A stretch of 64,000 bases of DNA. It comes from a virus. The notes below the pieces were generated by a model. The model had not been told where the DNA came from, did not search any database, and saw only the letters and a list, made by a program, of their open reading frames with translations. Of the stretch, positions 11,745 through 13,817 are shown piece after piece. The DNA lies in the IMG/VR virus record IMGVR_UViG_3300036820_000015, positions 13,652-77,651 of that record. One strand, given 5' to 3'. The translations under genes were made by a program, and so were the position numbers. The first letter of the stretch is position 1; each line of letters starts with the position of its first letter.

Positions 11745-13817
11745 ATGACCACCCTTCTCGATGCCGCTGAGTCCACTGCCTTTGCCGAGATGCCGGACGA
11801 CCGGCTCATTTCGGCTGAGGATGGACTGCACAAAATGTTCGCCGTGAAGAAAGCAGCTGGGCTCGACACCGTCGAACTCCAGTCGGCTCACACTCTGCTC
11901 GCCCGGCAGATGTTCAAGCGGGGCCTCTTCTACGAGCCCCTCACCGCCGAGCCTGCTCCCCTGGCCCCGGCTCCCGAGACCCAGGTGCGCAAGGACATCG
12001 GGCCGCACTCCTACTTCTCGGGCTGTTGTGACTTCTCTGCCACCGATCACATGGCCAAGGCCGTCGGCACCGATGGCTCTCTCGGCAAGGCTCTCGCCTC
12101 CACCACCGAGGACCGCCAGCAGGGAGCCGAGAACGGCCTCGCTCTGCCCGATGGGTGTCTGGCTGCCGAGACACTGGTCACCACTTTGGATGGCCCCCAG
12201 CGGATCGACTCCCTCCTCGGCCCCTGCACCGTCCTGACCGATCAGGGCTGGGTGGAGGCTGAGGTCCGAGACTTTGGTCTCGGGACCCTCTTCGAGGTGG
12301 TGCTTCGACGTGGGTCCGAGGAACGGACAATCAGCGCCACTCTCAACCACCGCTGGGTTACAACCGATGGCACCTTCGTGACGACCGACCAACTCAGGGA
12401 TGTGGAAATCCCCTTCGTCGATATGGCAAACTTTGCCAATGTCATCACGTCGCGTCCCGCCCGATCAACGCAAGCACTTGCCAGCATTGGTGGTGGGAGG
12501 GCCGGAGACGCATCAGGTCTGCTCGAAGTGCGGGAAGAAGAAACCGGTAGCGGAGTTCTACGTCCGCAAGATTGTCCAGCCCAACCGGTATCGCCGAGAC
12601 TGCATCAAATGCTGTCTCAAACGGACGACCGAGTACGGGCTGGCGAATCCCGAGAAGAGTGGACGCAATGCTCGACGGGCGAAGCTCAGGACCTTCGGTC
12701 TCACAGAGGATCAGTACGAAGCATTGCTCGACGTTCAGGCCGGGGTCTGCGCTCTTTGCGGACACTCCGAACGGGACTCGACTCGAAAACGCCTACCAGT
12801 GGACCATTCGCATCGGCTTGGGCATGTGCGCGGGCTCTTGTGCGCTTACTGCAATCGGCAGTTGGGATGGATCGAATCCATCGGGGTGGGTCGCGTCATC
12901 GGATATCTCCTTGGCGAGTCGTTGCTGTTGCAGCAACCTCCCGCACCGAAACCGTCTACTGCGCTGTAGTCCCTGGGCTCCAGCGTTTCGTCCTGGCTGA
13001 CGGCATCCTCACCGGGAACTCCTTCTACATCCCCGACGAGGCCCATCTCCACGCCTGCATCCGTCTCCTCGACCAAGCTCCCGACCCCCAGTCGGCCATG
13101 AACCACATCATCGAACGGGCTAAAGCCATGGGGCTCGAATCGGCACTCCCTCCGGCTTGGCGTACCGGTGACGGCACTCCCGACGCCACCGATCCAGCCA
13201 TCAGTGACGGTGCCCACTCCATCGCTCCCGGCACCGCCCCCACTGCCTCTGGCCCACCGCGCGCCGGAGCTACCCAGCCCGCCAAGGCCAAGCCCAAGCC
13301 CACCTCGGCTCTCATGAAGGCCATCGCCAAGTCCGTCGTCAACGGCGAGTTCTCCGAAGACCTCTTCGCCAAGGCGGCCGAGGAGATCACCCTGGACGAG
13401 AACATCCCGACCTACTTCGTCATGAAGTCGGCCAACACCACCGAGCGCTACACCTTGGGCCCGCTCTACATGCCCAACACCCTCGACGCTCATGGCGAGT
13501 GGGCCTCAGCCACCGACCTCTTCAAGGCCCGGCTCGACTATGTGCGCGAGGGGGACCGGACGATCTACCTCCAGCACTCCACCCACCCGGCCGGGGAGTG
13601 GGTCGACATCGTCCAGTGGCCCCAGGAGGTCCGCTCCACCATGCAGGTCATGGGAGCCGGTGGCGTGAAAAAGGCCGAGGCCATCACCTTCCCGGCCGAC
13701 ACCGTCTACCTGGGTGTCGTCTGGGAACCGTGGGCCCACACCGAAGTCCTGAAGGGCAATATCCAGGGCTTCTCCATGGGCGGTTGGGCTCACCGCATCG
13801 AGGGTCTGCCCGCCTGA
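11745..13817 (+). CDS. XkdF-type capsid maturation protease precursor containing an intein
   Basis: C-terminal YTLGPLYMPNTLDAHGEW...YLQH...GVVW...GNIQGFSMGG; the N-terminal ALPDG|SFYIP motif is interrupted by the intein. Confidence 0.88.
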   Translation: MTTLLDAAESTAFAEMPDDRLISAEDGLHKMFAVKKAAGLDTVELQSAHTLLARQMFKRGLFYEPLTAEPAPLAPAPETQVRKDIGPHSYFSGCCDFSATDHMAKAVGTDGSLGKALASTTEDRQQGAENGLALPDGCLAAETLVTTLDGPQRIDSLLGPCTVLTDQGWVEAEVRDFGLGTLFEVVLRRGSEERTISATLNHRWVTTDGTFVTTDQLRDVEIPFVDMANFANVITSRPARSTQALASIGGGRAGDASGLLEVREEETGSGVLRPQDCPAQPVSPRLHQMLSQTDDRVRAGESREEWTQCSTGEAQDLRSHRGSVRSIARRSGRGLRSLRTLRTGLDSKTPTSGPFASAWACARALVRLLQSAVGMDRIHRGGSRHRISPWRVVAVAATSRTETVYCAVVPGLQRFVLADGILTGNSFYIPDEAHLHACIRLLDQAPDPQSAMNHIIERAKAMGLESALPPAWRTGDGTPDATDPAISDGAHSIAPGTAPTASGPPRAGATQPAKAKPKPTSALMKAIAKSVVNGEFSEDLFAKAAEEITLDENIPTYFVMKSANTTERYTLGPLYMPNTLDAHGEWASATDLFKARLDYVREGDRTIYLQHSTHPAGEWVDIVQWPQEVRSTMQVMGAGGVKKAEAITFPADTVYLGVVWEPWAHTEVLKGNIQGFSMGGWAHRIEGLPA
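12424..12432 (+). promoter_or_regulatory. Extended -10 (TGg-CAAACT) internal promoter for leaderless endonuclease VII
   Basis: Lies 6 nt before ATG 12439, the same geometry as the antisense HNH promoter. Confidence 0.5.
12439..12969 (+). CDS. Endonuclease VII-family homing endonuclease overprinted in the +1 frame inside the intein
   Basis: CSKC...CIKC zinc ribbon; FGLTEDQYEALLDVQAGVCALC...VDHSH...VRGLLCAYCNRQLG. Alternative ATG at 12400. Confidence 0.9.
   Translation: MSSRRVPPDQRKHLPALVVGGPETHQVCSKCGKKKPVAEFYVRKIVQPNRYRRDCIKCCLKRTTEYGLANPEKSGRNARRAKLRTFGLTEDQYEALLDVQAGVCALCGHSERDSTRKRLPVDHSHRLGHVRGLLCAYCNRQLGWIESIGVGRVIGYLLGESLLLQQPPAPKPSTAL

Follow-up and report, generated by a model that had tools for sequence, protein, structure and literature searches.

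A survey of PhagesDB by Gosselin, Arsenault and Gogarten (bioRxiv 10.1101/2025.01.02.630785) identified 63 inteins with non-canonical nuclease arrangements. The authors described, in Gordonia phages of cluster DE1, inteins of the large terminase subunit that carry an endonuclease VII gene out of frame, and inteins in MuF-like minor capsid proteins that carry antisense LAGLIDADG or VSR-like genes, and they proposed that such elements originate when an intein is invaded by a free-standing nuclease gene. A comparable arrangement occurs in the cyanobacterial dnaX intein, whose LAGLIDADG gene in an overlapping frame was found to be under purifying selection by the site-wise ratio of non-synonymous to synonymous substitutions (dN/dS) in a 2026 preprint (bioRxiv 10.64898/2026.09.14.751524), which credits the first proposal for this intein to Gorbalenya 1998. 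Two further systems are related in part: in fractured genes (Dassa et al. 2009, as cited by Gosselin et al.), a free-standing nuclease gene separates the halves of a split intein, and hidden out-of-frame HNH genes occur in the ShiLan domain of phage DNA methylases, with leaderless initiation only guessed at (PMC11855218). Here, we analysed a 64,000-nucleotide stretch of viral DNA (the window), positions 13,652 to 77,651 of IMG/VR record IMGVR_UViG_3300036820_000015, a 77.6-kb virus from a soil metagenome with a guanine-cytosine (GC) content of 0.61. The window carries, with a probability that we put at roughly 0.78, a two-gene mobile element within a phage head-protease gene, made up of a HINT intein and an endonuclease VII gene overprinted on it in the +1 frame.

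The features of the locus, in window positions, are given below; pLDDT stands for predicted local distance difference test, the score of the AlphaFold2 model, and L004 is a viral contig with a related intein.

11745-13817, plus strand: host head-protein open reading frame (ORF), as predicted, 690 codons, uninterrupted
11745..12155, plus strand: N-extein, ending ...GLALPDG, with insert-free alignment across the junction in the homologues P0002, P0003, P0005 and P0009
12156..13019, plus strand: predicted class-1 intein of 288 codons, Cys1 ... Gly-Asn, then Ser+1
12156..12438, plus strand: N-terminal splicing half (blocks A and B), pLDDT 88-98 over residues 1-90, 60% identity to the N-part of the L004 intein
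12439..12911, plus strand: host-frame centre, a linker of ~155 codons without stops or confident structure
12439..12969, plus strand: endonuclease VII gene in the +1 frame, starting at ATG 12439 or 12400 and ending with TAG 12967-12969
12912..13019, plus strand: C-terminal splicing half (blocks F and G), pLDDT 91-97 over residues 250-289, 76% identity to L004
13020..13817, plus strand: C-extein, with the SFYIPDEAHLH motif and an XkdF-type S78 prohead-protease domain

The +1 ORF matches the Pfam family Endonuclease_7 (PF02945) with an expectation value (E) of 4.6e-20 and 71.7 bits, against a cut-off of 23.6, over profile positions 5-80 of 82. The family belongs to the HNH, or beta-beta-alpha-Me, superfamily of nucleases; canonical inteins have a nuclease domain in frame at this place, where the window element has a complete gene of the free-standing type. 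We aligned its product within a set of 12 sequences from viral contigs, comprising the window ORF, the L004 ORF, which is nested antisense, and ten unenclosed ORFs. The invariant columns are those of an N-terminal CxxC...CxxC ribbon, a CALC pair, an Asp-His pair and a CxxC-Asn element, with residues C104, C107, D122, H123, C135, C138 and N139 invariant in 12/12. The core of the protein aligns with the DHDH...C..CN core of T4 endonuclease VII, and a profile of the alignment matches the solved structures of Hpy99I (5.7e-12) and T4 endonuclease VII (4.3e-9). The AlphaFold2 model of the nuclease has a mean pLDDT of 77 and gave weak Foldseek matches at E 0.016-0.09, including Hpy99I (E 0.016) and T4 endonuclease VII, 1e7l (E 0.06, probability 0.96, 78 columns), with none at E 0.001. 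An earlier note on this DNA, made from the letters alone, had read 12439-12969 as a complete zinc-ribbon endonuclease VII, a reading upheld by the Pfam match and by the preservation of the zinc and catalytic columns. ATG 12439 is the first start past the N-terminal splicing half, with ATG 12400 and GTG 12490/12493 as alternatives. At the other end, the final ~19 codons of the gene overlap intein block F; nuclease residues 161-176 have low pLDDT, and over this overlap constraint appears to act on the intein frame.

Free-standing relatives share 30-48% identity with the nuclease (43% for L011 over the whole ORF; 48% for L009 over a partial query), and the L004 nuclease, at 33-36%, is no closer than these. 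A search of viral contigs with the nuclease returned 52 loci, 51 of them free-standing, and the only intein-embedded case was L004/L010. Long antisense open frames lying over other nuclease genes (L020, L022, L047 and others) were considered and set aside as chance, their translations being junk.

The DNA bears the marks of two overlapping coding frames. GC content peaks at host codon position 3 (0.73-0.85) throughout the host ORF outside ~12420-12970, where the periodicity shifts by one base, with values of 0.63, 0.48 and 0.68 at nuclease codon positions 1, 2 and 3. To assess the openness of the host frame, the nuclease protein was held constant, its synonymous codons were resampled and host-frame stops were counted. 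The host frame was free of stops in 0.1% of resamples drawn with the codon usage of neighbouring genes and in 0.8% of those drawn with the gene's own usage, the mean being 4.4-6 stops per resample. A stop arises in the host frame only where a nuclease codon ending in T precedes one beginning with AA, AG or GA; T-ending codons occupy 0 of 33 such positions and 28 of 142 positions elsewhere (Fisher p 0.0027). Because of the GC shift, the improbable openness and the avoidance of T, we conclude that the nuclease frame carries protein-level information and that the host frame is actively kept open. Synonymous codon choice in the nuclease gene thus keeps the linker frame stop-free. The layout as a whole goes well past what chance would produce.

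The host frame contains the blocks of a splicing domain on either side of the linker. These read CLAAET(LV), TLNH and VYCAVVP...ILTGN/S (here and below, a slash marks the intein junction), and the C-terminal end of the intein is VYCAVVPGLQRFVLADGILTGN. The boundary codons are TGT (Cys) at 12156-12158 and AAC (Asn) at 13017-13019, followed by TCC (Ser) from 13020. Residues Cys1, T62 and H65 of the block B Thr-x-x-His motif, and N288, are invariant in the alignment of the intein family. In an AlphaFold2 model built with nine relatives, pLDDT drops to 51 over intein residues 91-100, segments below 50 begin at residue 95, and the host-frame centre (residues ~95-248) lies at 27-49; no family was matched in a Pfam search of this centre. 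The two modelled ends jointly align with NpuDnaE, 4kl5, at Z 18.6 and a root-mean-square deviation of 1.7 Å over 126 residues (VIA-align), and dozens more solved inteins align with the model at Z 15-18, many mini-inteins among them at 17-18. By its blocks and modelled fold, the insert is a class-1 HINT intein that is predicted to splice.

As judged from its sequence, the interrupted gene encodes a phage head protein whose protease domain is of the XkdF/S78 type. Pfam Peptidase_S78_2 matches the window protein at E 3.4e-4, under the cut-off of 24 bits, which its homologues clear (P0001 at 34.7 and P0045 at 81). The tblastn matches of the protein in cultured phages (n=15) are from Arthrobacter and Microbacterium phages; two of the 15 (H3 and H6) are annotated as capsid maturation protease, and the remaining annotations are RNA ligase, class I aldolase and hypothetical protein. 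Intein-free homologues (P0002, P0003, P0005, P0009 and others, at 51-54% identity) have a contiguous ...ALPDGSF[YP]IPDEAHLH... motif, which in the window is divided, as ALPDG/SFYIP, by the 864 bases of 12156-13019. Excision of the intein in silico yields ALPDG-SFYIPDEAHLH, identical to P0002 and P0009. Three statements of the earlier note are therefore borne out, namely that the splicing blocks CLAAET, TLNH and ILTGN/S all lie in the protease frame, that the in-frame centre is motif-less filler and that removal of the intein gives back ALPDG-SFYIP. A split intein or fractured gene was also considered and is ruled out, the host gene being a single 690-codon ORF. Upstream of the protease gene, between it and ORF 7531-11010, a long inverted repeat, cctaggtcggggcccgg ... 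ccgggtcccgacctag, was observed at window positions 11589-11705.

To place the element among its relatives, we searched 1.84 billion cluster representatives with the intein by phmmer, obtaining 798 matches, and delimited a family set of 161 inteins from the best 150 of these together with earlier ones. For each centre of the set we derived, by back-translation of the host-frame protein, the residues open to each alternate frame, and in these we sought a signature of the nuclease, C[AP][LI]C ... DHx[HR] ... R[GQKE][LIV]LCxxCN. Four inteins accommodate it in the +1 frame and eight in the antisense frame that is in register; among the 161 it fits none in frame or in the other alternate frames, and it was found in 0 of 805 shuffled intein centres. 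A dynamic-programming version adds P0043 (+1, z 17.9) and both P0040 and P0049 (antisense, z 18-19), and confirms P0018 (+1, z 7.6) and P0001 (antisense, z 26), with the window as a positive control at z 5.1. This brings the +1 relatives to five (P0018, P0043, P0056, P0081 and P0120) and the antisense relatives to ten. All 15 of these nested-nuclease inteins and that of the window occupy one short motif, ..[AM][LM]PDG/S[FY]PI.., two of them with the variant AM/SGGG[FY]PI. Seventeen inteins were found at the shared site in all, the other two being a mini-intein (P0041) and a remnant (P0038), and none has the nuclease in frame. The host proteins that bear the motif comprise XkdF S78 proteases, DUF2213 and DUF5824 proteins and proteins without a Pfam match. 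At other sites (DnaG, ribonucleotide reductase, PAPS reductase, PD-(D/E)XK and others), the signature occurs in 0 of 144 family members, and Pfam finds LAGLIDADG_3 in frame in six of seven inteins sampled from them and no nuclease domain in the seventh. This co-occurrence of nuclease and target motif is the best available argument that endonuclease VII serves as the homing nuclease for this site.

One antisense relative could be followed at the level of DNA:

IMGVR_UViG_3300037150_000144 (L004), 4244-4717 including the stop, minus strand: nested nuclease ORF, Endonuclease_7 match at E 8.3e-18

This ORF is in register with the host frame on the other strand, codon against codon, and its limits are exactly those of the space that separates the two splicing halves of an intein at AMPDG/SYPI. 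The host of the L004 intein (3671-6799) is a protein of 1042 residues without a Pfam match, and it has only the short AMPDG/SYPI region in common with the window protease; the same element would thus sit in different head proteins. An 11-base identity, GCCAGCATTGG, between the 5' region of the window nuclease and the sequence upstream of the L004 nuclease gene was dismissed as chance (expected ~0.1). With the nuclease in register on the opposite strand, the probability that the host frame is open is 0.53, as only TTA, CTA and TCA have to be avoided, and this near absence of cost may account for the greater frequency of the antisense form.

In a tree of the splicing domain, which is based on 123 columns and weakly supported at many nodes, the +1 forms are intermingled with the antisense forms. 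P0018 (+1) pairs with P0032 (antisense) as its sister at 97/81 support, and the window groups with ten antisense forms in a clade supported at 91/83. Together with the window nuclease being no closer to that of L004 than to free-standing ones, this interleaving, drawn from short alignments, hints at repeated invasion or flipping rather than a single ancestral event. Two inteins at ..DG/SYPI.. were noted for their size: P0041, a mini-intein of 158 residues, is placed in the tree among the antisense-nuclease forms, and P0038, of 217 residues, has a centre of 87 residues with a poor fit to either frame. They look like stages of nuclease loss. Beyond the family set, a search of 50,697 cultured phage records yielded no relative of the intein, a profile search of genome contigs with the intein alignment gave no match, and the sole match of a metagenome scan was a ribonucleotide reductase intein with a LAGLIDADG-type centre in frame, recognised by eye and without a Pfam LAGLIDADG match.

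We propose that the nuclease is translated separately from an internal start and that, during co-infection, it would cleave alleles that lack the intein, at the ALPDG/SF site or close to it. Repair would copy the intein and the nuclease gene into the cut allele, and protein splicing would then take out the intein with its linker and restore the protease. The excised intein would, in the reading of the earlier note, offer the overprinted gene a 'cost-free' shelter. The element may go back to the entry of a free-standing endonuclease VII gene into either a mini-intein or a LAGLIDADG intein, an event in which orientation and frame would have been free provided that the host frame stayed open.

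Several points weigh against this account. Transcription, translation, splicing and cleavage are all predicted from sequence alone, no close DNA relative of the element was found, and the frames of the relatives were mostly deduced from proteins by degenerate back-translation rather than read from DNA. The penultimate residue of the intein is Gly, the usual His being absent. A two-hexamer sigma-70 scan of 11300-14000 found no promoter-like site, and no Shine-Dalgarno sequence precedes any of the candidate starts (ATG 12400, TTG 12433, ATG 12439, TTG 12478, TTG 12487, GTG 12490 and GTG 12493). The penultimate residue varies among active inteins, so Gly is not disqualifying, and every family member displayed ends in ...TGN. 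A Shine-Dalgarno sequence is likewise missing from the protease gene and from most of the phage's long ORFs (for example, at starts 5512, 7531, 11745, 13939 and 16165), so its absence at the nuclease gene is uninformative; this suggests that the host of the phage relies little on Shine-Dalgarno pairing.

How the nested gene might be expressed bears on two of the alternatives. The earlier note had proposed an extended -10 element as the gene's own promoter. The letters TGG-CAAACT do occur at 12424..12432 on the plus strand, six bases before ATG 12439 and with the TG one base upstream of the hexamer; as a promoter the site fares poorly, since CAAACT agrees with TATAAT at 3/6 positions, no more than expected by chance. 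A private internal promoter here (12424-12432) would give a leaderless mRNA from ATG 12439, making the nuclease early and uncoupling it from the late protease mRNA. The 6-nt spacing between hexamer and ATG suits leaderless transcripts, of the sort also guessed at in print for hidden HNH genes (PMC11855218), and L004 has TAGGCT 7 nt ahead of its ATG; moreover, the antisense relatives must have promoters of their own, and since they must be transcribed on their own, autonomous expression is plausible in the lineage. However, the hexamer lacks the first T of the consensus, the scan provides no site, the sigma-70 consensus may not be that of the host, and the start could be any of 12400, 12439 or 12490/12493. 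A gene on the same strand needs no promoter in any case, internal initiation on the late mRNA being an equally simple route for it, and we consider a private promoter rather unlikely. No terminator-like site was found at 11300-14000. A programmed +1 ribosomal frameshift, by which the N-extein, the N-half of the intein and endonuclease VII would be made as one fusion, would suit the shared strand, the +1 offset and an ORF without a preceding Shine-Dalgarno sequence. We consider it very improbable, as neither a slippery nor a stall motif came to notice at 12400-12490, an ATG belonging to the nuclease ORF lies immediately past the splicing domain, and such a mechanism is impossible for the ten antisense sister inteins.

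Two other explanations concern the integrity and the activity of the nuclease gene. Compensating indels from sequencing or assembly, a concern raised in the earlier note, could conceal an endonuclease VII domain that is in truth in frame. This possibility is an a priori one only; an index of sequencing runs places the stretch in one DNA run and no RNA run, and that single run may itself be the source sample. A second assembly (a Logan contig) of this run is identical over 11700-13900, with no indel at ~28x word depth, a comparison that tests the assembler rather than the sample. The five further +1 and ten antisense inteins come from other datasets, and none of these relatives has its nuclease in frame; in addition, the nuclease ORF possesses its own start and stop, and T-ending codons are avoided precisely at the would-be stop sites of the host frame. 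The chance of an artefact is therefore negligible for practical purposes. Alternatively, the architecture could be as described and the nuclease gene a silent relic, within a vertically inherited intein, whose +1 ORF is intact only through its youth. The lack of a recognisable expression signal and of close relatives that would reveal ongoing mobility is in keeping with a relic, and P0041 and P0038 show that decay happens at this very site. Yet the ORF is intact, it retains every catalytic and zinc residue, and its frame has a coding GC signature; furthermore, 15 of the 17 inteins at the site, each representing a separate cluster at 50% identity, fit the full nuclease signature in the alternate frame, which is not expected of neutral decay. 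We therefore regard a relic as improbable, and favour an overprinted nuclease gene that forms a mobile element with its intein.

A broader proposal, which we put forward tentatively and hold to be possible rather than probable, is that the lineage is an obligate partnership of an intein and a separate nuclease gene that homes to ..PDG/S[FY]PI.. across different head proteins, and that the nuclease gene entered the intein or changed orientation on several occasions, taking either the +1 frame or the antisense frame in register, and was never fused in frame. If this is true, selection would have to favour expressing the nuclease separately, and the element would need a way of moving from one head protein to a different one. 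At the level of the locus, the window element adds an independent metagenomic example to the intein-overprinted nuclease genes, which annotation pipelines overlook. Within one intein lineage, at one motif, the out-of-frame nuclease is the rule (15/17 representatives); same-strand and antisense solutions both occur, and the same-strand solution marks synonymous codon choice measurably. These results bear on how inteins acquire nucleases, in particular on the model in which splicing comes first and the nuclease invades later, and the locus provides a compact natural dual-coding system for studying the expression of nested nuclease genes.

The Gordonia terminase inteins are similar in layout to the window element: a class-1 intein has an endonuclease VII ORF between its splicing blocks, on the same strand and in another frame, with the host frame open and the centre without a predicted fold. 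In Keitabear, which we checked, the intein lies in the terminase gene at 514-2901 and the nuclease ORF at 1386-1841, at offset +2 (the authors' 'frame 3'), whereas the window nuclease is at +1 and its host gene encodes a prohead protease. Compared by inspection, the splicing domains also differ, with CMTGDTPV...VSHN/T in Keitabear and CLAAET...TGN/S in the window, and the Keitabear nuclease lacks the CxxC...CxxC ribbon that the window nuclease has. The antisense endonuclease VII of the window's sister inteins is outside the list of Gosselin et al., in which the antisense genes are LAGLIDADG and VSR-like only. The dnaX inteins of Synechocystis and other cyanobacteria and the MuF-like inteins share with the window a separate homing-nuclease gene nested in a contiguous intein, for which an origin by invasion of a mini-intein has been proposed; however, their nucleases are LAGLIDADG and VSR enzymes instead of endonuclease VII, and the dN/dS evidence belongs to the dnaX case.

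Fractured genes likewise have a nuclease gene of free-standing type lodged in mid-intein, but they comprise two host ORFs spliced in trans, whereas the host ORF of the window is continuous. The hidden HNH genes of ShiLan domains overprint, as here, an insertion of a phage gene that reads in frame, has no stops and resembles a loop; such insertions lack a splicing domain and remain part of the host protein, whereas that of the window is predicted to be removable by the HINT intein. A possible case of this kind was observed in Gordonia phage Malisha (OP434458.1, L061), in which the DNA helicase gp71 (1512-3371) has a stop-free, junk-like linker between its halves. This linker contains a 176-codon endonuclease VII ORF at 2423-2953, in the +2 frame, with no intein blocks visible; phage Squiddly gave the same match. 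It looks like a ShiLan-like hidden-HNH insertion rather than an intein. Phages also have zinc-ribbon endonuclease VII genes that are free-standing, such as T7-like gp13.5 and the mycobacteriophage 'HNH/endonuclease VII' genes; these have the same domain order as the window gene, but occupy intergenic positions of their own, whereas the window gene is nested in an intein in another frame. The layout is thus already known, from recent and rare cases, and the window element is a further example of it and not a new concept. It differs from the published cases in its intein lineage, its prohead-protease host, its target motif, its +1 frame with a codon-level cost, its antisense endonuclease VII sisters and the out-of-frame position of the nuclease as the norm.

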